Shown piece after piece: positions 25,611 to 51,300 of a stretch of 64,000 nt of DNA (position 1 is the first letter of the stretch; every line of letters starts with the position of its first letter). The notes below the pieces were generated by a model. The model did no database searches, was not told where the DNA came from, and saw only the letters and a list, made by a program, of their open reading frames with translations. Source of the DNA: Ostreococcus lucimarinus (Eukaryota); assembly GCA_000092065.1 (NCBI GenBank), contig CP000592.1; one strand, written 5' to 3'. The position numbers and the translations under genes were made by a program.

Positions 25611-28386
25611 CTACGTAGTCGCGGGCGCTTCAGGCGCCGGTGCATGCGCATCATCGACGGTTCCTTCGATGGAAGTAGTCGCGTGCACTTCGTGTGCCGG
25701 TGCATCCACGTCATCAGTGTCCATCGGCGCGGGCGCGGCCACAGGTACGCCCGGAACCGTTTTGGTTTGCAGCGGGTGTGCACCCCCCTGCTCTTGCGTG
25801 GGTTTGGCGTCGCCTTTCGAGTATTTCATGTCGACAAAATGAGTCGCTCGATAGTCATCGATCATCGCCACGTAAGCGAGCACTTCTTTCATCGAACGTA
25901 ATTTGTGGCCGCTTGGTGAGAGGAATTCTTTGTACGAAGTCCCCGCAAGACGTCCACCTTTTCGCTCAAACACGTCTACACGCCAGCCGCGACCGCGAAT
26001 GTCGATATTGGGCGCGTGCTTTTCGACATACGCGTACAATTTCTCAAGTTCGCTCGCTGTCGCGTTTCTGACGGCGAATTTCGTCTCGCGAACCTCGCTG
26101 ACTGGCTTCGCGGCGGTCGTTTTCGGCTTCTTCAACTCCAACCGATCTCTAAGTCGCACATTCTCCTCTTGCAGAGCGCGTACTTTCGCGCGCGAACTGT
26201 CGAGCTGGAACTCACGAGTTTGCACGCGTACTCGTAATCTTTCGAGCTCTCCTGCGTATGATTTCATTTCCTCTACGCTCACGGTGGAAGAGCCGTTGAT
26301 GCCCCTCTTAATATTCTGATCAATATAACGCGCATTTGCAGCGCGTTCCTCCGCGAGTTCTGTCTCGAGCTGCACGAACTTTTCCTCGAGAATCTTGAAG
26401 AAGCTCTCATCGATGACGGTTGAGAGCGCTTTGGGAACTCGAACCATCTGGTTTGGCTCTGCTTTGACATCAGGACGCTCCATATTGCTTTCTTCTTTCT
26501 CAGTGACTGTTTTCTTTGCATCTGCCGCTGCCGCGACTTTATTGACCAAAAGTGGAGGAACGGCAATAGCAGGCGAAGGCTCGACCGTTTGATCATCGAC
26601 CGCAGTGCGCACTTGAGCCTCTCGCATTAAATTCTCGCGCCGCGACACCGCAGTCGGTGCGGACGTCGGTGCGGAGTGGAACGCGTCGCCAGTGTCCGTT
26701 TCCGTTCTTGTCGGCCCGCGTGCGTCCGCTGCGGCGTGCGACGCTAGCGCAGGAACCACGAATTCCTCGTCTTCAATTCTAGTTTGCCATTGATACTCAA
26801 ACTCTCTTGACATGATGCGCGCCATCTTGAACACTGGCGTGTCGTCTTTGTTGTAAGTCATCGCATTGGACCAAACCAGTCGAACGTCGGCGGCGTACGC
26901 CTCGACATTTTTCTCGTCGTAATACCCCGCGTCGATGCGTTCTTTAATCGTACCGAGATCCATCGGATTTTTAATGACTTCGAAGTAGTCTGGAATCTCC
27001 CAGTACACCGGATCGACTGGACGCAAGAAAATGTACGCGTTCTTGTGTACCATGAGAGAGCGATGAATCGACTTGATGCGGGTAAGTGGGGTCGCGACAC
27101 GTCCGCCTTTCGGCCTACCGCGCGGCGCTGGAGCCTTATTCGCACCGTCGCTCCCTCCATCTTCATCGTCTTCGTCGAACGAGCTAGACTTGTGCAAACG
27201 TTTTCGTCGCTTCGCCGTTTGCTTCAAAGACGTCGTTCCCGCGCCGCGGCCGCCGCCGCCGGCTAAACGATACCTTTGAATACCGAAATAATAATCCTGC
27301 ATGCATTGCACTAGATGACGCTTGAACTTTTGATAGGTGATGTCGGCCTCCTTGAATGCTTGTTTGTTGTGTGTCGGTTCCAAGGAGTCCGCCTCGATGA
27401 CACCGATCATATCCTTCATCATTGTGTTCGCCTGCAGCTGCGAACCGAAGCGTTGGTGCATGCGAATCAATCGGTTCTTGTTGTAAATGTGGAACCCACA
27501 CTTCTTCGAAGTTTCATCCGCGGCGTATCCGATGTGAATCGTGATTCCCGCGTCCAAGCCTCGCGGCTTGTACTCCGGAAACACATAATATTCTCGCGCG
27601 AGATGCGCGATCGGGTCTCGCGGCACGACTGGTCGCCCGCGAAGCGTGAATTCGCACCGCGGTTTCAGGTACAAAATTTCCATGTAAGCACGTAAACTAT
27701 AGTCTTCCTGCACATCAATCGACGCCTGCTGGCCTTCGCGCGATTGTTGGAAAATCGGTCCGCGCACCGCTCGCTCGTCATCTGGGATAGCCCCCACCAG
27801 ACGAATGTCATCCTTGTAGCTCGTGAAATCCAACTCGGGCGGATCGCGCAAGTTGAAAAGTACGATGCGCGTCCCGTGTGAACCTCTTATCTTGTCCAAC
27901 TCTCGCATCAACTGTGGCTCCGAGGGTACGAATGAATATCGCAAGATCACAGACATGTGTTCATCCCATTTTTTCGTATTCGCTGGTTCGCTCGCGACGT
28001 ATGAAACCCTGCCGCCAGTCGTCGCGTCTCGCTCCATCCTCCACGAAAACATCGGAATCAGAATGTCGTCCAGCTCGGCGTCATCTAAAAACGTCTGTGA
28101 CAGGAACGCGACGTGGGCGTACCCATCTCTTTTCGTCAATATCAACGCGTCTCGCGCCAATCGCATCGATCCAGACTTAAAACCGATACCAAACCGCCCG
28201 ACGTTCCCAGCCTTGTGTTCCTTGTCGCTAAAACCAAACGACAGCATGCCGACCAGTCGCCGACGATCCATGCCCACGCCGTCGTCTTGAACGATGATGC
28301 CCACATTATTCTTGGGATCGACCATTTTAGAAAGCTCTACGACGTCGACGTGTACGGCTTTGGCTCCACACTCCGCGTCTTGCGCG
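25611..28386 (-). CDS. MORC-family GHKL ATPase – bromodomain – coiled coil – MBD protein, exon 2
   Basis: GHKL/MORC motifs (VDVVELSKMVDPKNNVGIIVQDDGVGMD, GRFGIGFKSGSMRLARDALILTK) and the S5-like region come first. A bromodomain (MVHKNAYIFLRPVDPVYWEIPDYFEVIKNPMDLGTIKERIDAGYY...MTYN), a long coiled coil and an MBD (RGRGWRVDVFERKGGRLAGTSYKEFLSPSGHKLRSMKEVLAYV) follow. The exon-2 5' boundary was set at the AG acceptor at 28387-28388. Confidence 0.75.
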
Positions 28387-28599: not shown

Positions 28600-29297
28600 C
28601 AGTCAGTCTTCAGTCTCCGCGACTCGCCGTCTCCGCGATCGTCCCGATTCTCCGCGATCGCGCGCCGCTTTCCCCGCGTTTCCCCCTCACATCTCTCACG
28701 CACTCTTCAGCATCCGCGGGTGCGCCTTCGAGTGTTCCATAGCTCGCGCATCTCTCTGTCGATCCACGTCGAACGTCACTCCGGGAGCCGTCGCGCGCTC
28801 TTCCTCCTCCTCGCCGTCCCGTTCGTCGCCGACGCGTTCCAGCCCCGCCAGCTCCACGCGTTGTGGTTTTTGCTTCCGTCTCTGCGTCGTTCCGTCCCGG
28901 TCCCACCGTCAGTCGTCCGCGACGCGCGAAACCGTCGCATCCGTCTCCTCCCGCGTCCGCGTCGCGCGTCGCGCGCGCGCGCCGCGACGGTCGCACCATT
29001 CCGCTCGACGTTCGCCCGCGCGCGTCCCGTCGCGAACCGATTCACGAAAACCCGCGTCGACGCGCCGATCCCGCGAATCGCCCGCCGTCGCGCGCGCTCG
29101 CGGCGCAATAATTTAACCCGCGCGTCGCGTCGCGCGCGCGACGTCGTTCGCGCGCGCGCGACGAAGTGCCGCGCGCCGTCGCGGCGTCCGAGCGCGGGCA
29201 ACAACGCGCGCGTTCGGACGCACGAGGACGCGCGACGCCGCCGTCTCTCGGCGCACACGCGCGCGCGCGCGACGCGAAGATTTTTCTCCGCCTCGGC

Positions 29298-32279
29298 ATG
29301 GCGCGCGATCGGCGCGATCGAGCGTCGCGCGCGGATGGGACCGCTCGAGCGAACCCTCGCGGGCGCGCGCGCGCGCGAGGCGTCGTCGTCGTCGTCGCGG
29401 CGTGCGCGGCGATCGTCGAGGCGGCGGTCGTCGAGGACGCGACGAGTCGGTCGATCGGGTTCGTCGCGACGGGCGAGGACGCGGTGGTGCGCGCGCGGGT
29501 GGTGACGGATCGGTCGCGGGCGAGGACGCGGGTGTCGGCGCGGTGCGCGAAGGGGTGGGAAGGCGAGACGCGCGTCGAGGCGCGCGACGACGGACGATGG
29601 CCGGACGACGTCGCGAACGACGGCGTGTACGCGGCGAAGTGCTCGACGGATGGTTTGCGAGCGGGTGAACGCGTGCGGTGGCGATGGGAGGTGGAATCGC
29701 CGGAACGCGCGTTCGCGCCGACGGGACGGGCGAGATATTACGGGACGGTTCTCGAAAAAGATTTAAGAGCGGATACGAGTCTGAGCGTCGTGCACGTGTT
29801 CGCCCCGGACTATCGGAAGATGACCACCGACGAGGGCGAACGGGTTGGGGTGTACTTTGAGGGGCGGTATTACGACGACGTCCTCATGCGCCGACGAGGA
29901 TCGAATCGTAAGGAAGCCGTGATCGGGGTCGATTTGTCCGCCGCGAATTGGCCCAAGCACAAGTTTAAGCTCGATTTTCACGGTCGGGTGTTCAAGTTCG
30001 ACGAGAACGAGCGCAAGGTAGAGGAAATTAATTTGCAGTCGCATTATCAAGAGCCAGGGGAAGAGACGTACCTACGCGAGAATCTCGGATTCGCCATACT
30101 GCGCCGCGCCGGCGTGCCGGCGTCGCTGACCAAGCACGTACAAGTCCGCGTGAATAACGAGTTCTACGGATTATTCTCGTTGATCGAGCAAGTCGACTCG
30201 ACTTTCCTTCGCCGGAACTATCTCGATCCTGAAGGAGCGTTGTATAAGGCGGTGAATTGGAAGTACAGCAATCTTCGAGCGGGAGATCCGAACCTGCCTT
30301 GCCCGTACGCTACGCCCGATTACAAGCGAGAATGGATGAACGACGGTTGTCCGGAAATCTATCGTAAAGCTTCAAAGGCGAATCGTGACAATTGGGACGA
30401 TTTGTGGGAGCTCACGCAAGTGATCGAGCGCGTACGCAGGAATCCCGGGGGCGAGGCGTACTTGCTGTACGATCATACCAATCTTCCCGCCTTGGTGAAC
30501 GAAATGGCTGCACAAACGCTCATGCTCGGAGCCGATCGCTGTACAAAGAACTACTACATGCACAAAGACTGGACGGGCGAATGGTCGCGTATTCCGTGGG
30601 ACGTGGAAGACGTGTTTCCGGGAGATAAACGATACGGCATCGACCTCTGTAAGTCGAGTGAATGCGACAAGAAATCAACCGCGTATTGCATTCTGTCGTG
30701 CGAAAAGTTCAACTCGCCGCTGTACTGCGACCGAAATCATCCCCAGGACATCTTTTACGCTCAATCTCCCGAGCAAGACCCTCGATCAACGTACAATGTT
30801 CTCATAGACGTTATGCTCGCAGTCTGGCCAGTCAAGGAGATGTACTTCACCCGCTTGCGCACGCTTATGGATGAGATTTTGGCAACGTCGTTCATCGACG
30901 ACTACGCGAGGCGCACGTTGAACATTATACGCAAAGATGCTCTGCGGGATTCAGAGAAGTGGGGGGTCGGCGCCGTGCGAGCTATCGACCAAGGCGTGCT
31001 TCAGCTGCTCTCGCAAATCGTCCCGAAACGCCGAGACCAATTGTTCAACCAATACAGCTCCATGATACCATCGTCGACGCCTTCGAATGCGCGAGTGTAC
31101 GTCTCACACGCGCAAAAGAATGGCGTTGAAGCGTACGTCAAGATTAGTAATCCGAACGGCTATGCCGTGGACGTGTCGTTTTGGATAGTCGAAACTCGAG
31201 GCGGGTGGAAATATACGCTGAAACCGGGCACCGTTCTCGGCGCCGGTCGCACCCTGTTCGTCGTCAGGGACGCGAAAGAATTCAGACGTCGCGCGACGTG
31301 GGCTCGCCGCGAATACCCCGAAGGCGTCTTCGTGCAAGGAAATTTCCAATCTGATTTAGACACAGATGACGTGAATATGATTTCTGTGACAAGGACATCC
31401 GAGCGCGTCGCCGCGCTCAACGGACGTGGGCGCGCGTTCAGACGGTTTCGACCACGCGTAGGATTCGACAACACTTCGTGCGCGCTCCCAGATGTCGGTC
31501 CTTGGAGCGAATACGGTGATTGCTGCGCCGAAGGCAAATGCGGTTTGTGGTGCGGCGTCCAAAACGCCGCGCGAGTTCGACGTCGAGACGTGAACATCAC
31601 GCTCGGACTTGATCCGAACGATTTACCGCAGTGTTTGGTCCATAGCTATGAGATTGATAGACGCTGCGCGAGCCTTGAGTGCGGCACGCCGAGACCGCCG
31701 AACTCGACGGCGTGTCGAATTCCCTCGAATGAATCGTTTGTGCGTCTCTCGCGAAACGACCAAAGCGTCATCTTTAGTCCGATTTTCGGCTTGAACACAC
31801 GCACGTGGGAGGATTGGAGTTACAAGGTGGAAGTCGCACCGCACGACGCGCACGGCGTCGATGGCGCTTCAAAGTCGTTGAAAATCCTCGTACACTCGGG
31901 TGGTGGTTTGGCGTTTCGAGCGACGGCGCGAAACGACACTCGGCTCACTTCCGCACACTTCTGGATCGCGAGACACGCCCCGCCCCAACCCCTTCCGCGC
32001 CTCGTCTTCGACCTCGAGTCGACGAGCGATAACACCACGACGACGCGCGCGGCGCCCGGAGAGTTTCTTCGAGGCATCGCCCGCGCGCAGAGCGACTGGA
32101 ACGCCGGTTGCTACGTCGAAATCATCGCCGATTTCGCCGGCTTCGACGACTCTCCGACCACCGCGGCGCGCGAGCCGTCGTCCGTCAAAATCGTTCTCAA
32201 GAGCGCGTTCGGCTCGCCAACGCGTCTCTGGCTCGGTCGCGCGGTGGCCGTGTTCTCATCTCACGAAAACGCGCCGTAA
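29298..32279 (+). CDS. CotH-domain (kinase-like) protein with N-terminal signal-anchor and Cys-rich C-terminal region
   Basis: The signal anchor is GVVVVVAACAAIVEAAVV. The central region matches the CotH family (LRENLGFAILRRAGVPASLTKHVQVRVNNEFYGLFSLIEQVDSTFLRRNY...YKAVNW). The C-terminal roughly 350 aa are Cys-rich. The ATG at 29298 is in frame with the track ORF that begins at 29166. Confidence 0.65.
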   Translation: MARDRRDRASRADGTARANPRGRARARGVVVVVAACAAIVEAAVVEDATSRSIGFVATGEDAVVRARVVTDRSRARTRVSARCAKGWEGETRVEARDDGRWPDDVANDGVYAAKCSTDGLRAGERVRWRWEVESPERAFAPTGRARYYGTVLEKDLRADTSLSVVHVFAPDYRKMTTDEGERVGVYFEGRYYDDVLMRRRGSNRKEAVIGVDLSAANWPKHKFKLDFHGRVFKFDENERKVEEINLQSHYQEPGEETYLRENLGFAILRRAGVPASLTKHVQVRVNNEFYGLFSLIEQVDSTFLRRNYLDPEGALYKAVNWKYSNLRAGDPNLPCPYATPDYKREWMNDGCPEIYRKASKANRDNWDDLWELTQVIERVRRNPGGEAYLLYDHTNLPALVNEMAAQTLMLGADRCTKNYYMHKDWTGEWSRIPWDVEDVFPGDKRYGIDLCKSSECDKKSTAYCILSCEKFNSPLYCDRNHPQDIFYAQSPEQDPRSTYNVLIDVMLAVWPVKEMYFTRLRTLMDEILATSFIDDYARRTLNIIRKDALRDSEKWGVGAVRAIDQGVLQLLSQIVPKRRDQLFNQYSSMIPSSTPSNARVYVSHAQKNGVEAYVKISNPNGYAVDVSFWIVETRGGWKYTLKPGTVLGAGRTLFVVRDAKEFRRRATWARREYPEGVFVQGNFQSDLDTDDVNMISVTRTSERVAALNGRGRAFRRFRPRVGFDNTSCALPDVGPWSEYGDCCAEGKCGLWCGVQNAARVRRRDVNITLGLDPNDLPQCLVHSYEIDRRCASLECGTPRPPNSTACRIPSNESFVRLSRNDQSVIFSPIFGLNTRTWEDWSYKVEVAPHDAHGVDGASKSLKILVHSGGGLAFRATARNDTRLTSAHFWIARHAPPQPLPRLVFDLESTSDNTTTTRAAPGEFLRGIARAQSDWNAGCYVEIIADFAGFDDSPTTAAREPSSVKIVLKSAFGSPTRLWLGRAVAVFSSHENAP

Positions 32280-32406: not shown

Positions 32407-33126
32407 ATGCGCGCGATCGCGCGCGCGCGCCCGTCGGTGGCGCCTTCGCGCGCGGTGCCGACGCCGCGACGCGGGACGATCGCGGTCGGTCGCGCGGCGC
32501 GCGCGCGCGCGCGCGTCGACATCGTTGCGTCTCACGAGTGCGCGAACGCGCGTCGTCGCGTCGTCGTCGCGCGCGCGGCGACGAGCGACGACGCGAGCGA
32601 CGACGCGAACGAGACGAGTGGGATGGCAAAGGTCAAGGCGTGGTGGCGAGACGCGGCGAAGATCGATAAGAAGAAGATTGCCTCGCTCGGTTCGGCGGCG
32701 TTGCTGTCGTACGGGTTCGTGAGTAACGTGTTTTACGTGACGTCGTTGATGCTGGCGACGTACACGGCGGTGAAGACGACGGGGGCGAGCCCGCTGGTGA
32801 ATTCGCTGTCGATGAAGACGTTCGCGTCGTCGTATTTTGGGTTGTGGATGATTCAAAACTTTTTGCGCCCGGCGCGATTCGCGTTGTCGGTGGCCATCTC
32901 CCCGGGGACGGATAGAATCGTGGAGTTCTTTCGTAGGTACGCGCCGAATAACGATAAGAAGTGGGCGTTTGCGTTGACTGTGTTTTGCATCAACGTTGTC
33001 GGGACTTTTGCGTACATGTTTGCCGGGTTTGGATTGATCGTAGCGCTCACGGGCGTACCGCTGGAATTGTCATCTTTCGGCGGACTGTTGGCAGCCGCCA
33101 AAACGGCAAAGACGGGCGCGGTGTAG
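32407..33126 (+). CDS. organelle-targeted multi-TM membrane protein (possibly DUF1279/FAM210-like)
   Basis: A transit-like N-terminus is followed by KKKIASLGSAALLSYGFVSNVFYVTSLMLATYTAV and further hydrophobic helices. The family call is tentative. Confidence 0.4.
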   Translation: MRAIARARPSVAPSRAVPTPRRGTIAVGRAARARARVDIVASHECANARRRVVVARAATSDDASDDANETSGMAKVKAWWRDAAKIDKKKIASLGSAALLSYGFVSNVFYVTSLMLATYTAVKTTGASPLVNSLSMKTFASSYFGLWMIQNFLRPARFALSVAISPGTDRIVEFFRRYAPNNDKKWAFALTVFCINVVGTFAYMFAGFGLIVALTGVPLELSSFGGLLAAAKTAKTGAV

Positions 33127-45030: not shown

Positions 45031-48000
45031 TTACGCGGCCGTGGCGGCGTCCCATTGGATCCAGGCTGGAATACCCTCGTCGTCGTCTTCGTGCTCGTGG
45101 TCGTGGTCGACGTCGTCCTCGGCGAAGGATTCTTCGAGAGCGTCGGCGGAGTACGCGTCCGACTTTGATGCGTGCTTTTTGGACTTGTGAGAGTGTTTCG
45201 AGGAACCGTGCTGAGCGTGCGTCGAAAGGTTTTCGTCACCCTCGTCGTCGTCTTCGTCAAAGTCCGCGGAACTACTGCGATGAGAGCTCTTCTTCTTCGG
45301 CGCGCGCTCAACTGAGTCGTCCCACGGATTCTTATTGTGCTTGGAAGATTCTTTAGGGACAAAACTCTGTGATTCCGCGAGAGCCTCGAAGTCGACGCTT
45401 TCATCATGCTTCTTTCGTCCATGTCCGTGTGCATCGCGCGTGTCCTCGTCGACGTCGTCGTCGTCATCGTCGTACGAGTCGCTCGCCTTGGAGGCGCTCG
45501 AGGAGAAGAGATCGTACGAAATCTTGTGCTTCATATGTTTGGCGTCGTGCATGGAGTACGTCGAGCGGTGGTGATACAAATGATCAGCCGCGTCATCAGC
45601 GTATGTCGGCAACTTGGCGCCAGTGCGAGCAGCGACAGCTTCGCGCGGTTCTTCGTAATATTCTGTCTCGTCCACGTTTTGCTCGTCGTCAATCATGAGC
45701 GAGTTTTGATGAATTTCTGGAGGCTTGAGCGCGTCTAATCCATACGAGGTGCCCCAAAATGAACCATCGTGTCTATCTTTCGCGTACACAATTGGCTTGT
45801 CCGAAGTTGTCGAAGAAGTGACCGGGGCTTGCACAGCCGGAGCAAAGCGAGATGGCACCACTTGGCGCGCCGGCGCAAGCGCTGGACGACTTTGTGACGA
45901 TCCCGACATGGGTACCGGCTGCGCTGGCTGCTGATACGTGGCCGTCTGCTGCGGTTGCTGGTACGTAGTCGGCTGCGCTGGCTGCTGATACGTGGCCGTC
46001 TGCTGCGGTTGCTGGTACGTAGTCGGCTGCGCTGGCTGCTGATACGTGGCCGTCTGCTGCGGTTGCTGGTACGTAGTCGGCTGCGCTGGCTGCTGATACG
46101 TGGCCGTCTGCTGCGGTTGCTGGTACGTAGTCGGCTGCGCAGCAATCGGTTGCTGCCGCACCGTGTGATGTTTCTGCTCGCGGTCAGCTTGCGGTTGTTC
46201 CTTGTGACTGCTGTGTCTCGGCTCGACTTCTTCGAACTCGTCCGAAATGTCGCTCTTGTGATGCTTCTGCTCGCGATTCGGTCCGCCGTTCTGGTTTTCT
46301 TGCGTGAAATCTACGGGCGGTAAACCTCTCGACGCCTTCTCCCAGGGCGCCGCGTGGCCTTCGAATCCCAATGTGCTAGAACTATTGACCTCGGTTGCGT
46401 TCGTCTCAATGCCAGTCAGCGACTGCTGTTCCGCTGCGTTCGGGCTGGTGGTTGGAACTGGGGAAGATGAGGCCGGCGCCACGGGCGTAGGTAACACGTC
46501 CGTTGAAGTAGCTGCCTCAATGCCAGTCAGCGACTGCTGTTCCGCTGCGTTCGGGCTGGTGGTTGGAACTGGGGAAGATGAGGCCGGCGCCACGGGCGTA
46601 GGTAACACGTCCGTTGAAGTAGCTGCCTCAATGCCAGTCAGCGACTGCTGTTCCGCTGCGTTCGGGCTGGTGGTTGGAACTGGGGAAGATGAGGCCGGCG
46701 CCACGGGCGTAGGTAACACGTCCGTTGAAGTAGCTGCCTTCATCGCGTCAGCCAGCGTCATGGGATCTGAGTACTCCTCTGATGCGTCTTCCTGCGATGC
46801 ACCAAGCCTCGCTGCCGTCGGACGTGGCAACGCTTGCGCCTGTTCTGCCGGTGTGGTTCGACCAGCGTTTGTCGTGACGTTACCACCACTCACCTCAGAG
46901 TCGTCGTGAAACGCGCCGAGGGACGCTTGGAAGTGTTCCATGCTCCAGAAATCTTGATGCTTCCCAGCGCGTTGCATTTTCCAACCCCAGAAAAAGTTTG
47001 GCATGTTTGCGACCTCAAAAGCTCGCATTTGACCCCTGTACACAGCATGTTTCACTCTATCTTCGTCGCAGCCCATGGCGCTGTCGTGATGCGTCGCGAG
47101 CGACCACTCGCCCACACTAAATTGGTGCACTCCGATGTCCTCCGCCGTGCGCTTCACCTTCGCGATGTGCCCGGCCATGGCAGATCGAACGGTTTCAGTG
47201 ATGTGTTGCGACGAGTCCGAGCAACTCCAAGCGCACCCAGACTTGCATCCATTCACTCCCCAAGCGAGATAGAAGTGTGTGTCTAATACCGCCCACGTTC
47301 TAAGCTCTTCGCGATCGAACCACTTTCTCATGAGTTTCCCGTACTCTTGTACTGCTAGCCCACTCGTTTCCATCAAATTGACGTACAGCTTTGGCACGCG
47401 CTTGCCCGACATCTCGCGGGGTCGCGCCACGAGCTGACGATACGCAAAGATGGCCTTCTCCATCCATGCCAGCATCGCGTCGCGTTTCGCCGGCATCAAG
47501 TGCGCGGGTTCGTTCAAAAGCGTGAAGCCATCGACAAAATCCTTATCATCCTCAGTGAGGTGGTTGTACCACTTGAACATACTGTGAATCGCGTTCACAC
47601 CCACGTCTTGAAGTTTTGCGTCGTCCCAAAACGCCGGTGGGTGCGGAGACACGCCGTTGTACGTGCCCTCCGAGCTGCCACCGGGCATGTTGTGCATGTC
47701 GACTACCACTCGCGCCCCAGTCTTCTTGTGCAAGATTCGAAGAACGTTCGTCAACGTCATCTGATCGACAGTCACCTGCGCTCGATCGCTATACTTTGGG
47801 TCTTCGACCACTCGCGTCGGGCTTTTCTCCGTGCCCATGAACGCCGCCCAATTCACAGGTAGTCGCAGCGTCTTGTATCCCACTCGCGCGATCTTCTCCA
47901 CGTCCGCGTTCGTCATCCAACTCGATCGATACGCGTTCATAATCTTCACAGTCTTCAAATTCCCATACTTCTTCGCGAGTTTCGCCACCAACTCCCCCTC

Positions 48001-48528
48001 GCTCGACCACGAAAAACCGAGCTCCTCGGCTGAATTGAAAAACGGCGGCAACACCCTTCCCTGCGCGCGCCCGAGCGGCGAATCCACCAACGTGCTCTCA
48101 CCGTTCGCGAAGAACCAATCCTCGAGGTGCAACCATCCGTTCAACGCGACGCCCGCGTTATCCGGAACGCGCGTGAACGCCTCGCGCTCGACCGGCGTCA
48201 ATCCCAGCGCCGCGCTCTCGCGCGCGCGCGCGTCCCCCGTCGCCGTCCCTCGCGCGCGCGCCCCGAGCACCGCCACCATCGCGCCGAGCGCGACGCACGC
48301 CGCGCGTCCGCGTCGCCGCGCATCCCTTCCCGCGCCGTCGCTCGCTCGAGTCGTCTTCCCGCCGCGCGCGTCGTCGCCGGCGTCGCGCGCGCCGTCGTCG
48401 GCGTCGATCTCGCCGCGCGCGCGCTCGACGTCGTACGCGTCGTCGCGCGCGCGCGCGCGGTCGCGCGTCGCGCGGGACGACGACGGACGATCGCCGCCGC
48501 GTCCGAGCAGCGCCGCGCGCTCGCTCAT
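45031..48528 (-). CDS. membrane-anchored glycoside hydrolase family 5 protein with long repetitive Ser/Thr/Pro/Gln-rich stalk and acidic tail
   Basis: An N-terminal TM helix is followed by a GH5 domain carrying the catalytic NEP and GEW motifs. About 650 aa of low-complexity sequence follow, with two families of tandem repeats. I chose the ATG at 48528, and there is an alternative at 48573. Confidence 0.7.
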   Translation of the reverse strand: MSERAALLGRGGDRPSSSRATRDRARARDDAYDVERARGEIDADDGARDAGDDARGGKTTRASDGAGRDARRRGRAACVALGAMVAVLGARARGTATGDARARESAALGLTPVEREAFTRVPDNAGVALNGWLHLEDWFFANGESTLVDSPLGRAQGRVLPPFFNSAEELGFSWSSEGELVAKLAKKYGNLKTVKIMNAYRSSWMTNADVEKIARVGYKTLRLPVNWAAFMGTEKSPTRVVEDPKYSDRAQVTVDQMTLTNVLRILHKKTGARVVVDMHNMPGGSSEGTYNGVSPHPPAFWDDAKLQDVGVNAIHSMFKWYNHLTEDDKDFVDGFTLLNEPAHLMPAKRDAMLAWMEKAIFAYRQLVARPREMSGKRVPKLYVNLMETSGLAVQEYGKLMRKWFDREELRTWAVLDTHFYLAWGVNGCKSGCAWSCSDSSQHITETVRSAMAGHIAKVKRTAEDIGVHQFSVGEWSLATHHDSAMGCDEDRVKHAVYRGQMRAFEVANMPNFFWGWKMQRAGKHQDFWSMEHFQASLGAFHDDSEVSGGNVTTNAGRTTPAEQAQALPRPTAARLGASQEDASEEYSDPMTLADAMKAATSTDVLPTPVAPASSSPVPTTSPNAAEQQSLTGIEAATSTDVLPTPVAPASSSPVPTTSPNAAEQQSLTGIEAATSTDVLPTPVAPASSSPVPTTSPNAAEQQSLTGIETNATEVNSSSTLGFEGHAAPWEKASRGLPPVDFTQENQNGGPNREQKHHKSDISDEFEEVEPRHSSHKEQPQADREQKHHTVRQQPIAAQPTTYQQPQQTATYQQPAQPTTYQQPQQTATYQQPAQPTTYQQPQQTATYQQPAQPTTYQQPQQTATYQQPAQPVPMSGSSQSRPALAPARQVVPSRFAPAVQAPVTSSTTSDKPIVYAKDRHDGSFWGTSYGLDALKPPEIHQNSLMIDDEQNVDETEYYEEPREAVAARTGAKLPTYADDAADHLYHHRSTYSMHDAKHMKHKISYDLFSSSASKASDSYDDDDDDVDEDTRDAHGHGRKKHDESVDFEALAESQSFVPKESSKHNKNPWDDSVERAPKKKSSHRSSSADFDEDDDEGDENLSTHAQHGSSKHSHKSKKHASKSDAYSADALEESFAEDDVDHDHEHEDDDEGIPAWIQWDAATAA
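45911..46130. repeat. 54-nt tandem repeat x4 (encodes TYQQPAQPTTYQQPQQTA units) inside GH5 gene
   Basis: Near-perfect copies of ggtacgtagtcggctgcgctggctgctgatacgtggccgtctgctgcggttgct are seen. Confidence 0.85.
46408..46740. repeat. 111-nt perfect tandem repeat x3 (encodes DVLPTPVAPASSSPVPTTSPNAAEQQSLTGIEAATST) inside GH5 gene
   Basis: Three essentially identical 111-nt units are seen directly. Confidence 0.9.
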
Positions 48529-48743
48529 GGCCGCCGTCGCGCGCGGTCGCGGTGTGATGACGCGCCCGCTCATGAGTTTTGGGTGTTGAACGACAAAAGG
48601 TCCGTGTGGATTCAGCTGATTAAAATTAAAACACACGCGCGGAGCACCGAGGACGCGCGGCGGTGATTGATTATTGGTGATTATCGGTGATCATCGCGCG
48701 ATCGAGGATCGAGCGCGACGGTCGGGGTTGACAAAATTTTCGC

Positions 48744-50366
48744 TCAGACGGCGCCGTAGGCGCCGCGCGCGCCGCGTCGGAGACGCGCGGCCTCGGGCGA
48801 CGCGTGACGGTGTCGCCTGTAAGCGACGAACGCCAAGGCGAGGAAACCGGTGAGAGCGACGGATGGGCCGATGAGCGACGCGTGGGAGTTCGAGGCGGCG
48901 TAGAGGGCTCGGCCCAAGGTTGGAACGCCGACGGGGCCGTCGCCGCCGACGGGGTAACCGCCGCCGGTGGTGCCGTCGCCGCCGACGGGGTAACCGCCGC
49001 CGGTGGCGCCGTCGCCGCCGACGGGGTAACCGCCGCCGGTGGTGCCGTCGCCGCCGACGGGGTGATCGCCGCCGGTGGTGCCGTCGCCGCCGACGGGGTA
49101 ACCGCCGCCGGTGGTGCCGTCGCCGCCGACGGGGTAACCGCCGCCGGTGGTGCCATCGCCGCCGACGGGGTAACCGCCGCCGGTGGTGCCATCGCCGCCG
49201 ATGGGGTGATCGCCGCCGGTGGTGCCGTCGCCGCCGTCGCCGCCGTCGCCGCCATCGCCGCCACCGCCGCCGATGCTGCCGTCGCCGCCTTCGCCGCCTT
49301 CGCCGCCGTCGCCGCCGTCGCCGCCGTCGCCGCCGTCGCCGCCGTCCACGTGAGCCAGGGCGTCTTCGCAGCCGGTGTTGACTTCCGGTAGGTTGGGCTT
49401 CGGATGACAGTGCGGGCCTTCTTCATCGTCGTCATCAGGGTTACCTTCGTCAAACTCACAACCAGCGTTTGCCTCGCATGCACTTTGGTCTTCGTCGCTC
49501 ATCGAACACTCAATGTCGCACAGGTCGATCTGCTTGTTGGTTTCCTTGACGAACGTCTGCAAGTCGCCAAATGTTCTCGGGCACACGTCGAAGCCCATGG
49601 CGTCCGACTCAGGGTGCGGGACGCAAAGTGCTCCGTTCGGGAGCTCTTCGTTCCATTCGCAGGCAATCATGCTAGTGCACGAGTCCGCATCGGTGCCCTC
49701 TCGACAAACCTCCACGCAAGGGTTGGTGGCGTCACCGCCGCCGTCGCCGCCGTCGCCGCCATCGCCGCCGTCGTGGCCGGTGGTGCCGTCACCGTCGCCG
49801 CCTTCGCCGCCTTCGCCGCCTTCGCCGCCTTCGCCGCCTTCGCCGCCTTCGCCGCCTTCGCCGCCGTTGCCGCCACCGCCGCCGTCGCCGCCGTCGCCGC
49901 CGTCCACGCGAGCCAAGGCGTCTTCGCAGCCAGTGTTGACTTCCGGTAGGTTGAACTTCGGACGACAGTGCGGGCCTTCTTCATCGCCGCCTTCAGGGTT
50001 TAGGCCTTCTTCATCGCCGCCTTCATCGCCGCCTTCAGGACCTTTGTCGAACTCACAACCAGCGTTTGCCTCGCACGTACTTTGGTCGTCGATGATCGAA
50101 CACTCGACTTCGCACAGGTTGATCTGCTGAATGTTGTTGGTAGTCTTGACGAACGTCTGTAACTCGCCAAATGTTTTCGGGCACGCGTCGAAGCCCATGG
50201 CGTACGACTCAGGGTGCGGGACGCACGTCGAGTCCGCGTCGCCCCATTCGCAGGCGAGCATGGCGTCGCACGAGTCCGCGTCGGTTTTCGCTTGACAGAA
50301 GCCCTCGCAAGGGTTGTTGGCGTCGCCGCCAGCGGGGTAGCCGCCGTCGCCGCCATTGCCGCCGGT

Positions 50367-50409
<43 letters not shown>

Positions 50410-50534
50410 TTGCCGCCGGTGCCGCCGCCGGTGCCGCCGCCGCCGCCGCCATTGCCGCCGCCGCCATTGCCGCCGGTGCCGCCGCCGGTGCCGCCGCCGC
50501 CGCCGCCATTGCCGCCGGTGCCGCCGCCGCCGGT

Positions 50535-50595
<61 letters not shown>

Positions 50596-50912
50596 TTGCC
50601 GCCGGTGCCGCCGCCGGTGCCGCCGTCGCCGCCGTGACCGCCGCCGGTGCCGCCGTCGCCGCCGTGACCGCCGCCGTGACCGCCGTGACCGCCGCCCTGA
50701 CCGCCGCCGTGACCGCCGTGACCGCCGCCGTGACCGCCGCCGTGACCGCCGTGACCGCCGCCCTGACCGCCGCCGTGACCGCCGTGACCGCCGCCCTGAC
50801 CGCCGACAGCGTGACCGCCGACGTGACCGCCGTCACCCTCGCCGCGCGCCGCGTCGTCCGCGCGATCCGCCTCCTCCGTCGTCGCCGCCGTCACCGCGCC
50901 GCGTCGCGTCAT
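48744..50912 (-). CDS. glycine-rich, cysteine-module cell-surface-type protein with C-terminal TM anchor
   Basis: His/Gly-rich (GGHGG)n and a poly-Gly tract of about 100 aa come first. Two copies of a ~130-aa 10-Cys module (NPC..C...SC....ACEW...C.PHPES.AMGFD.CP.TFG.LQTFVK...C..ECS......C.ANAGCEFD) follow. Then come nine YPVGGDGTTGG repeats and a C-terminal hydrophobic helix plus basic tail. The start is uncertain, no signal peptide is seen at the chosen ATG 50912, and the track ORF extends to 51095 into a duplicated AT-rich element. Confidence 0.55.
48940..49235. repeat. 33-nt tandem repeat x9 (encodes GGYPVGGDGTT units)
   Basis: gacggggtaaccgccgccggtggtgccgtcgccgcc units are seen directly with minor variants. 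Confidence 0.85.
50340..50640. repeat. near-pure (GCC)n trinucleotide tract (~300 nt) encoding poly-Gly on the minus strand
   Basis: Seen directly, with occasional ATT/GGT interruptions. Confidence 0.9.
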
Positions 50913-51042
50913 CGCGCGTTCGAGCGTTCGAGTACGTTCGCGGTCGCGCGCGCGCGTCGCGGGAGCGCTCGCGTGTGTCGCGCGCGCGTCGTTCGCCGTC
51001 GACGACGCCGATCCATCATCGCTGACGCGGATCGGGGGTGTT

Positions 51043-51300
51043 GCGCAGAGTCGGAATCTTCGATATACCGTAAATATACGCCTTTGTATGTACATTAAAC
51101 ACGTAGAGTAACTCGTAACACCCCATCAATATGCGTGGAGCGAGACGCGCGGCGTGCGACCTCTCTGTGTGTGACGCAGCGTCGGAATCTTCGATATGCC
51201 GTAAATCTACTCTTGTGTATGTACATTAAACACGTATAATCACTAGTAACACTCTATGTGTGGAAACGCGTGCGACCTCTCTGCGTGCCCAGACTGCGCG
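51043..51300. repeat. ~130-bp AT-rich segment tandemly duplicated (2 copies, ~85% identity) in intergenic region
   Basis: Copy 1 is gtcggaatcttcgatataccgtaaatatacgcctttgtatgtacattaaacacgtagagtaactcgtaacac...gtgcgacctctctgtgtg. Copy 2 is gtcggaatcttcgatatgccgtaaatctactcttgtgtatgtacattaaacacgtataatcactagtaacac...gtgcgacctctctgcgtg. Confidence 0.8.

Follow-up and report, generated by a model that had tools for sequence, protein, structure and literature searches.

CotH belongs, to our knowledge, to the few kinase families that are active outside the cytoplasm, and we know of substrates only for the Bacillus spore-coat enzymes and of demonstrated protein-kinase activity only for Bacillus CotH. 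Marine Planctomycetes and Verrucomicrobia, cellulosomes and green algae commonly contain large extracellular proteins that join a CotH domain to a lamin-tail domain (LTD); we are aware of none with an assigned function. Bacillus CotH is a single-domain protein of approximately 360 aa, a product of the mother cell whose targets in the spore coat are CotB and CotG. The D228Q mutant of the B. subtilis enzyme is inactive, and mutations of D228 and D251 abolish its activity (PMC7821199). In bacterial and fungal cellulosomes, extracellular CotH modules are joined to LTD, Fn3 or dockerin modules (PMC6083626; PMC12484212). The bacterial CotH-LTD proteins, including the cellulosomal Cthe_0239 of C. thermocellum (LTD-LTD-Fn3-CotH) and CseP, are secreted or extracellular and carry their CotH domain in company with binding modules (PMC6083626), and no function has so far been assigned to these multidomain proteins (PMC12484212). 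Among eukaryotes, the CotH2 and CotH3 invasins of the Mucorales are surface-exposed CotH-domain proteins that are treated as ligands of a host receptor rather than as enzymes (PMC10079182).

The gene described herein is located in a stretch of 64,000 nucleotides of Ostreococcus lucimarinus DNA, which is referred to below as the window. A CotH-like ORF had been proposed at this position in an initial annotation, and the ORF is real, although its product comprises 993 aa rather than the 990 aa given there. The protein is composed of a basic tail with an 18-aa hydrophobic segment, a beta-sandwich, the CotH domain, a probable lamin-tail domain, a Cys-rich module of approximately 85 aa and a probable jelly-roll of approximately 175 aa, in that order (Table 1). 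A search of the literature on CotH in green algae or in Ostreococcus returned nothing relevant.

Table 1. Positions in the window of the CotH gene, the regions of its product and two other genes discussed in the text.
Feature	Position	Strand	Basis or description
CDS	29298..32279	+	First ATG 29298, TAA 32277-32279; complete, intron-less, 993 aa (ORF list and translation)
N-terminal targeting region	29298..29432	+	27-aa Arg-rich tail, then hydrophobic G28-V45 (GVVVVVAACAAIVEAAVV)
N-terminal beta-sandwich (aa 44-155)	29427..29762	+	AF2 model all beta, pLDDT mostly 90-96
CotH atypical kinase domain (aa ~160-590)	29775..31067	+	Pfam, PDB profile, Foldseek; pLDDT mostly >90
Catalytic loop D413-R-C-T-K-N418	30534..30551	+	Conservation in 62 homologues and B. 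cereus alignment
Metal-binding Asp motif P433-W-D435-V-E-D, counterpart of kinase DFG	30594..30611	+	Conservation and alignment to B. cereus PWDYD
Lamin-tail-like beta-sandwich (aa ~598-700)	31089..31397	+	Pfam, Foldseek, AF2 pLDDT 85-96
Cys-rich module (aa 722-806, 9 Cys)	31461..31715	+	7 of 9 Cys invariant in 10 orthologues
Probable C-terminal beta-jelly-roll (aa ~815-990), galactose-binding-domain/CBM type	31740..32267	+	Motifs WEDWSW, GGxxAF, PQPLP, W-x2-G-C
GH5-like repeat protein	45031-48636	-	~13-19 kb downstream of CotH gene, with Gly-rich gene
Gly-rich protein	48744-51095	-	~13-19 kb downstream of CotH gene, with GH5-like gene

Three comparisons bear out the CotH assignment of the central domain. 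Pfam PF08757 matches aa 215-571 over profile positions 8-311 of 322 (E 6.7e-33; 115 bits, with the cut-off at 23.8), a profile of the family matches the B. cereus CotH structures (PDB 5jd9/5jda) over chain positions 20-354 (E 4.3e-35), and the AF2 model aligns to the same structures in Foldseek with E 1.9e-16, a probability of 1.00 and a target TM score of 0.74. What the algal protein shares with the Bacillus enzymes is the atypical kinase fold, the D-x4-N loop and the P-W-D metal-binding motif, whereas sequence identity is only 16-17%. Unlike Bacillus CotH, it is equipped with a secretory targeting sequence, comprises five additional regions and bears a Cys-containing insert inside the CotH domain (aa 451-477), and it is made by an organism that forms no spores.

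The initial annotation had called this core kinase-like, and its catalytic residues are indeed kept. D413, W434 and D435 are invariant among 62 algal and bacterial homologues, in which K220, E297, K417 and N418 are conserved at 90% or more. D413, N418 and D435 align with D224, N229 and D247 of the B. cereus chain, and D413 and D435 correspond to D228 and D251 of B. subtilis, with a spacing of 22 residues compared with 23. Given that the catalytic Asp, the Asn and the metal-binding Asp are all conserved, the protein is, as judged from these alignments, not an obvious pseudokinase. Neither of the two outcomes that the initial annotation had named as telling against its proposal, a missing CotH HMM match and a loss of catalytic residues, was thus observed.

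The beta-sandwich that precedes the CotH domain and the probable lamin-tail domain that follows it were both missed in the initial annotation. The first carries the motif RDDGxWPDxxANDGVY, which is also evident in the consensus of bacterial CotH-LTD homologues, and it gives a sub-threshold match to the NCBIfam entry 'choice-of-anchor X' at aa 94-114 (23 bits, short of the required 25). The lamin-tail region scores 27.4 bits with Pfam PF00932, under the cut-off of 34.3; PF00932 is nevertheless recorded for approximately two thirds of the homologues, including a near-identical protein (P0001), and the model of the region matches the lamin B1 tail (3jt0) in Foldseek with a probability of 1.00 and E 0.023. 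With the CotH-LTD proteins of Planctomycetes and Verrucomicrobia the algal protein has in common a beta-sandwich with DG...D..A.DG.Y, a CotH domain with a YCxLxCExFNSPLY insert and, after it, a domain of the lamin-tail type. The bacterial proteins additionally carry Laminin_G_3, extra LTDs, Fn3 or dockerins, in place of which the algal protein has its Cys-rich module and jelly-roll.

Entry of the protein into the secretory pathway would depend on the N-terminal hydrophobic segment G28-V45. In a hydropathy scan of the whole protein, this segment alone exceeds a KD mean of 1.6 over 19 aa, and no second TM-like stretch was found in the 993 aa. A hydrophobic region of 10-30 aa is present at the N terminus of all 19 homologues checked, and the N termini of orthologues range from anchor-like forms (cores of 18-19 aa after tails of 15-38 aa) to classical signal peptides. 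The Arg-rich tail favours an N-in orientation, which speaks for an anchor. AF2 places a helix at residues 29-38, and from aa 44 the chain already forms the opening strand of the domain that follows. This lack of a stem speaks against an anchor, as do the short hydrophobic core and a possible signal-peptide cleavage site between the last two residues of V-E-A-A. Since the uncharged part of the core spans only 13 aa (G28-V40), and 18 aa when E41 is allowed for, a cleaved signal peptide and a signal anchor are equally possible readings of this segment. Of the earlier description of the protein as membrane-anchored, the single N-terminal hydrophobic segment therefore stands, whereas the anchor itself is not established.

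The proposal that the protein is lumenal or extracellular receives indirect support from this targeting sequence and from two further features. There are 20 Cys residues, an even number, in the mature protein, 15 of which are invariant across 10 long orthologues, and all six N-x-S/T sequons are found in the tail.

On balance, we lean towards the view that the protein is a catalytically competent atypical kinase of the CotH type that enters the secretory pathway, with its entire folded part facing the lumen of the ER or Golgi, or the cell exterior. Such an enzyme would, like secretory kinases of the Fam20C type, draw on ATP in the lumen, and its substrates would be secreted or surface proteins. 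Binding or targeting may be the role of the Cys-rich module and of the three beta-sandwich modules that lack a catalytic function, and the jelly-roll, judging from its fold relatives, might bind a glycan, either on the cell surface or on a glycoprotein substrate. The likeness that we propose to Fam20C, Fam20B and POMK-type kinases is that of a lumen-facing, disulfide-bearing kinase domain behind an N-terminal signal or anchor. The algal protein is not a member of that group: no Fam20 match was found in Pfam or the PDB, and the next structural match after CotH is a HipA kinase (E 2e-3).

The C-terminal tail deserves separate consideration. The initial annotation had described a Cys-rich extension of approximately 350 aa, but the Cys-rich part is confined to the module given in Table 1, which is flanked by the lamin-tail domain and by a jelly-roll with a single Cys. 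The peptide quoted in support of that extension (CALPDVGPWSEYGDCCAEGKCGLWCG) is located at aa 728-753, within the module, whose motif is W-x2-[WFY]-G-[DE]-C-C-x4-C-x3-C-x6-R-x-R-R-R. No family match was obtained with Pfam and NCBIfam for the C-terminal 279 aa of 10 orthologues or for five isolated Cys-rich modules. An exhaustive HMMER search with the C-terminal profile uncovered no relatives of the module outside its own family among 1.84e9 representative proteins; what it did return were fragments from that family. An apparent exception (P0084) is an AP2-repeat protein that matches 'GGRKRDINELNF' and was discarded as spurious. AF2 modelling of the C-terminal region from the 10-sequence alignment reached a mean pLDDT of 54, and the Cys-rich part is low in both this model and the full-length model (<40 to <46), which yields no fold assignment for the module.

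We also considered whether the module could be a thrombospondin type-1 repeat (TSR, PF00090/TSP_1), but this assignment was not adopted. The five isolated modules gave no Pfam match to it at E values up to 10, and each TSR has a six-Cys pattern in contrast to the nine Cys of the module. The resemblance seen in an exploratory hhalign comparison with manually entered TSR sequences (83% probability over 29 columns, W..W..C / R.R.R) should be regarded as no more than exploratory.

The probable jelly-roll, for which model confidence is only moderate, has no direct Pfam match. However, the C-terminal family profile matches bacterial repeat modules with E values from 1e-11 to 6e-4 in proteins that carry Pfam CIA30, CBM_11, CBM_4_9 or MAM, and hhalign pairs the jelly-roll with bacterial CIA30/CBM11-type modules at 97% probability (E 5.6e-11, 147 columns). 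These similarities place it in the galactose-binding-domain-like CBM superfamily, an assignment that applies at the superfamily level and to no numbered CBM family, and the tail looks like a sugar-binding module. The tail is absent from the syntenic orthologue of a related picoalga, and it is therefore not essential to the core function.

Fam20B, which is a xylose kinase, and POMK are sugar kinases, and the most serious rival to a protein kinase is an enzyme of their sort, in which the same fold phosphorylates carbohydrate and the jelly-roll and lamin-tail hold the glycan. We regard such a secretory glycan or polysaccharide kinase as unlikely, yet worth weighing. It would fit with the CBM-type jelly-roll that flanks the kinase domain, and with the occurrence of bacterial relatives of this jelly-roll in GH5-like and GH9 glycoside hydrolases. 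CotH modules moreover appear repeatedly in systems built around polysaccharides, such as cellulosomes (PMC6083626; PMC12484212), a full-text search for CotH also returned papers on Pel and stalk exopolysaccharide gene clusters, and CotH has been described as a distant relative of the Fam20C family of secretory kinases (PMC7821199). Against this, the only biochemically defined CotH substrates, CotB and CotG, are proteins (PMC7821199), and the syntenic orthologue without the jelly-roll keeps its kinase domain, which indicates that holding of a glycan by the jelly-roll is not obligatory. CotH also offers no known sugar-kinase-specific residues for comparison. A more elaborate proposal, to which we give distinctly less credence, is that the CotH proteins of the Mamiellales are glycan-directed secretory kinases, in which the Cys-rich module and the jelly-roll would dock on a surface polysaccharide or on the glycan of a glycoprotein, with the CotH domain then phosphorylating either this glycan or the molecule that carries it.

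We think it similarly improbable that the protein is mainly a non-enzymatic adhesin or structural component of the surface, as has been proposed for the CotH invasins of the Mucorales, with the kinase fold serving as a scaffold. Binding-type modules do account for four of its six regions, and seawater is essentially devoid of ATP, such that an extracellular kinase would presumably be idle outside the cell. Nevertheless, algal and bacterial homologues with overall identities of 22-69% retain D413, N418, D435, K220 and E297, which would be hard to explain without catalysis. In addition, the domains that flank CotH differ from those of the Mucorales proteins, and the invasin motif MGQTNDGAYRDPTDNN is absent from the algal protein, in which the best ungapped match covers 5 of 16 positions at an unrelated site (aa 920).

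Relatives are found in Bathycoccus, Micromonas, Chloropicon, Pedinophyceae and Dunaliella; orthologues from Mamiellales-like lineages share 37-73% identity, and four further green-algal lineages have more distant relatives. The algal sequences form one cluster in a rough NJ tree. The nearest non-algal relatives are CotH-LTD proteins of Planctomycetes and Verrucomicrobia at 30-34% identity, and no fungal protein is present among the 71 homologues. The same core, within the same algal cluster, is evident in the Chloropicon primus 'spore coat protein CotH', in a protein of Pedinophyceae sp. YPF-701, in the Dunaliella salina 'CotH protein-domain-containing protein' and in Bathycoccus prasinos, for all of which the annotations are automatic only. 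The Bathycoccus protein has the full C-terminal tail, like that of O. lucimarinus, whereas the Chloropicon, Pedinophyceae and Dunaliella proteins stop after the LTD, and the Chloropicon protein has an additional LTD at its N terminus. On the sequences compared, the beta-sandwich-CotH-LTD core, which is common to the Planctomycetes and Verrucomicrobia proteins and to other green algae, forms an old family of the green algae and falls together with those bacterial proteins, and the tail, found only in Mamiellales-like sequences, is an optional add-on.

The gene occurs with identical neighbours on at least six marine metagenome contigs, and the 90% cluster of its product has 173 metagenomic members. 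Eukaryotic neighbours, namely genes for a MORC-bromodomain protein, RecX and trehalose-phosphate synthase (TPS), are conserved on many marine contigs. Its intron-less structure, its calling as a prokaryote-style ORF in metagenomes and its closest non-algal relatives could be taken to suggest a recent bacterial transfer or an assembly contaminant that is non-functional in the alga, but this is effectively refuted by the eukaryotic genes on both sides with synteny preserved in at least two species, by a GC content of 0.55-0.65 within the 0.53-0.71 range of the window, by the algal orthologues and their grouping in the tree, and by the lack of an algal-virus copy, in that no relative turned up when IMG/VR was scanned with a pattern and all matches in BFVD were bacteriophage CotH proteins, with no prasinovirus protein among them. 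We conclude that the marine green picoalga genuinely carries this gene.

The GH5-like and Gly-rich protein genes that had been reported nearby are indeed present downstream (Table 1). They are separated from the CotH gene by housekeeping genes (Sec24, URO-D, TPS and RecX), and the Pfam matches among the 20 large ORFs scanned are likewise to housekeeping families, including XPG, RelA/SpoT, Sec24, URO-D, RFC and M18 peptidase. Given the distance of 13-19 kb and the unrelated genes that intervene, we claim no link to these two genes, and a functional tie to any neighbour was dropped. A eukaryotic gene neighbourhood is in general weak evidence for a functional link.

Nothing in these findings runs counter to the expectations that a specialist would draw from annotation as a CotH protein, and the protein, although uncharacterised, is a rather ordinary addition to a known family. 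Picoalgae of the Ostreococcus type are abundant worldwide and have no cell wall, and at least O. tauri is genetically tractable. Because of this tractability and the wall-less cells, a gene knockout combined with a surface phosphoproteome is feasible. If the CotH proteins of the Mamiellales were in fact glycan-directed kinases, they would provide wall-less picoalgae with a phosphorylated cell coat, and a function would for the first time be defined for the extracellular CotH-LTD proteins that are widespread in bacteria and algae. With its intact active site and optional CBM-like tail, the O. lucimarinus protein offers a reasonable entry point to these extracellular CotH-LTD proteins.

An open reading frame spanning positions 29166-32279 (+) of the Ostreococcus lucimarinus window has its first ATG at 29298, ends with a TAA at 32277-32279 and encodes a protein of 993 amino acids. 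The next in-frame Met (M175) sits within a conserved region, which leaves 29298 as the only plausible start. The initial annotation had proposed a CotH-family core for this protein, and the assignment is borne out by a Pfam match to PF08757 (CotH) at aa 215-571 (E 6.7e-33; 115 bits versus a gathering score of 23.8). This match is far beyond chance, and thus the prospect of a protein lacking any CotH hit can be set aside. A profile derived from 25 diverse homologues also matches the solved B. cereus CotH structures 5JD9/5JDA (E 4.3e-35), covering chain residues 20-354. The full-length AlphaFold2 model (mean pLDDT 78, with aa 45-700 mostly above 90) superimposes on the same structures with a Foldseek E of 1.9e-16, a probability of 1.00 and a target-normalised TM of 0.74, and the next-best solved structure is a HipA kinase (E 2e-3). 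On these grounds we regard the protein as a genuine CotH-family member.

Across 62 aligned homologues from algae and bacteria, only three columns are invariant (D413, W434 and D435), and R200, G201, K220, K224, E297, D300, K417 and N418 are each conserved in at least 90% of the sequences. The D413-RCTK-N418 segment pairs with FDGFVHN of B. cereus CotH, and P-W-D435 pairs with PWDYD. The spacing between D413 and D435 is 22 residues, versus 23 for D228 and D251 of B. subtilis CotH; substitution of either of these residues (D228Q, D251A) abolishes catalytic activity (PMC7821199). Given the conservation of D413, N418 and D435 and the matching spacing, the loss of catalytic residues that would mark a pseudo-kinase is not observed, and the protein looks catalytically competent. 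The Cys-containing insert in its CotH domain is kept across the bacterial subfamily in which CotH is joined to a lamin-tail domain (LTD), whereas B. cereus CotH has no counterpart in the profile alignment.

Features of the CotH protein (aa) and of neighbouring open reading frames (window positions)
Feature	Position	Characteristics
Targeting region	aa 1-45	27-aa Arg-rich tail, then GVVVVVAACAAIVEAAVV
Beta-sandwich	aa 44-155	High model confidence; motif RDDGxWPDxxANDGVY
CotH domain	aa ~160-590	Includes Cys-containing insert YC(I/V)LSCEKFNSPLYCD..HPQD
Lamin-tail domain	aa ~598-700	Follows CotH; probable, from a sub-threshold Pfam score, homologue records and a model match
Cys-rich module	aa 722-806	9 Cys, 7 invariant in ten orthologues
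C-terminal beta-sandwich	aa ~815-990	Single Cys; conserved motifs WEDWSW, GGxxAF, PQPLP, W-x2-GC
MORC-bromodomain ORF, upstream	25611-28325 (-)	904 aa
ORF directly downstream	32407-33126 (+)	239 aa; several hydrophobic segments
GH5-like repeat ORF	45031-48636 (-)	1201 aa; N-terminal hydrophobic segment
Gly-rich ORF	48744-51095 (-)	783 aa; 35% Gly

The modules surrounding the kinase differ from the Cys-rich extension of about 350 aa originally described, in that a probable LTD follows CotH and the Cys-rich module, which includes the peptide quoted there (aa 728-753), is far shorter. The N-terminal beta-sandwich gives a sub-threshold match to 'choice-of-anchor X', and its motif also appears in the consensus of bacterial relatives. 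For the LTD, PF00932 scores 27.4 bits, under the cut-off of 34.3; roughly two in three homologues have this family on record, and the modelled region matches the tail of lamin B1. No Pfam family matches either module of the C-terminal tail (Cys-rich module plus CBM-like beta-sandwich). When 1.84 billion representative proteins were searched exhaustively by HMMER with a tail profile, only 25 hits emerged, and the strong ones are fragments from this algal family. At weaker significance (E 1e-11 to 6e-4) come secreted proteins of bacteria with 2-7 modules of ~160 aa in tandem; a GH9 cellulase and a GH5-like/Fn3/T9SS protein are among them.

The Cys-rich module looks similar by eye to a thrombospondin type-1 repeat (W-x2-W-G-x-C-C ... 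R-x-R-R-R), and the sole positive sign is an exploratory hhalign against such repeats (83% over 29 columns). Pfam TSP_1 does not match, and the module has nine Cys versus six. Its AlphaFold2 confidence is below 40, and the module stays unclassified. The six N-x-S/T sequons of the protein are all located in the tail (window 31470-32036, aa 725-912), with none in the first 724 aa.

The segment GVVVVVAACAAIVEAAVV is the sole hydrophobic stretch of the protein, and an N-terminal hydrophobic segment is present in 19 of 19 homologues checked. It resembles a classical cleavable signal peptide in four homologues (P0009, P0014, P0027 and P0023). In the Ostreococcus-like group it comprises 18-19 aa after a basic tail of 15-38 aa, an arrangement that is equally consistent with a type II anchor. 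The window protein has an uncharged hydrophobic core of 13 aa and a first folded strand from aa 44, and cleavage between V-E-A and the following A is possible. Whether anchored or cleaved, the folded part is predicted to face the lumen or exterior. The mature protein carries 20 Cys in even-numbered groups by region (2 + 2 + 6 + 10), 15 of which are invariant among 10 long orthologues; these features and the sequons fit such a placement.

The protein combines a CotH fold, in which the active site is intact, with secretory targeting and a series of binding-type modules. We lean towards a secretory CotH kinase that would phosphorylate secreted or surface substrates while lumenal ATP is accessible, as Fam20C-type kinases likewise do, with the beta-sandwich modules, and the CBM-like tail where present, bringing the enzyme to a glycoprotein or glycan. 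A kinase acting on glycans themselves would accord with the CBM association and with the recurrent linkage of CotH to polysaccharide systems, but known CotH substrates are proteins only, and we consider this unlikely. A mainly non-catalytic adhesin, like the CotH invasins of Mucorales, is less probable still because the active-site residues are conserved and the Mucorales invasin motif is absent.

Full-length relatives share 54-65% identity in several Ostreococcus-like lineages and 37-45% in Bathycoccus. Core-only relatives (33-37%) occur in Chloropicon, Pedinophyceae and Dunaliella, and a Micromonas pusilla protein belongs to a family of shorter paralogues that lack the LTD. Among bacteria, the closest relatives are CotH-LTD proteins of Planctomycetes and Verrucomicrobia (30-34%); in a rough NJ tree, computed without support values, the algal sequences all fall into a single cluster beside them. 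This distribution fits a gene that is old in Chlorophyta and possibly derived from one ancient transfer. A search for transfer signatures, as initially advised, revealed no sign of a recent event; recent transfer or contamination is scarcely credible, given the algal cluster and a gene GC within the range of the window. Viral contigs of IMG/VR yielded no copy, and every BFVD match is to a phage protein. P0001, a near-identical record, belongs to a 90%-identity cluster of 173 members, every one of them derived from marine metagenomes or read-archive assemblies; the species that carries the gene is abundant in seawater.

The tail is present only in Mamiellales-like sequences, and not in all of them. 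A syntenic orthologue in a related picoalga (L007 3001-5091; same gene order) is 68% identical over aa 28-697 and ends directly behind the LTD, with the next gene starting 100 bp further on. The 293-aa tail (window 31398-32276) is absent, with no remnant detected by tblastn. P0008, a further relative, lacks the N-terminal beta-sandwich as well, and the accessory modules are therefore evolutionarily labile.

The gene is flanked by a MORC-bromodomain gene and by a 239-aa gene, beyond which lie RecX and trehalose-phosphate synthase, a neighbourhood repeated on many marine metagenome contigs. The upstream product combines a GHKL ATPase of the MORC type with a bromodomain and a weak match to MBD, an unusual chromatin-reader combination that is retained in synteny on all of the metagenome contigs. 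The 239-aa product matches no Pfam family and is kept in the related species (68% identity, syntenic, L007 5191-5925). The nearby GH5-like and Gly-rich surface genes previously noted do exist, but they are separated from the CotH gene by unrelated housekeeping genes and no link to it was found. The former matches PF00150 (GH5) weakly (24.5 bits versus a cut-off of 23.5), followed by Ser/Thr/Pro-rich sequence, TYQQPQQ-type tandem repeats and an acidic tail. The latter, without a Pfam match, carries GGGHGGH and GGDGTTGGGYPVGGD repeats around two Cys-rich units of ~100 aa, terminates in a hydrophobic anchor and occupies the stretch where GC is highest within the window (0.71).

CotH annotations, made automatically, are present already in related algae, and we found no relevant literature on algal CotH. 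The role of extracellular CotH proteins has been described as unclear in general (PMC12484212). The window protein belongs to the beta-sandwich–CotH–LTD subfamily of extracellular proteins, which is known from bacteria, cellulosomes included (PMC6083626). Its Mamiellales-specific Cys-rich and CBM-like tail is a modest architectural variation within a family known for swapping accessory modules.
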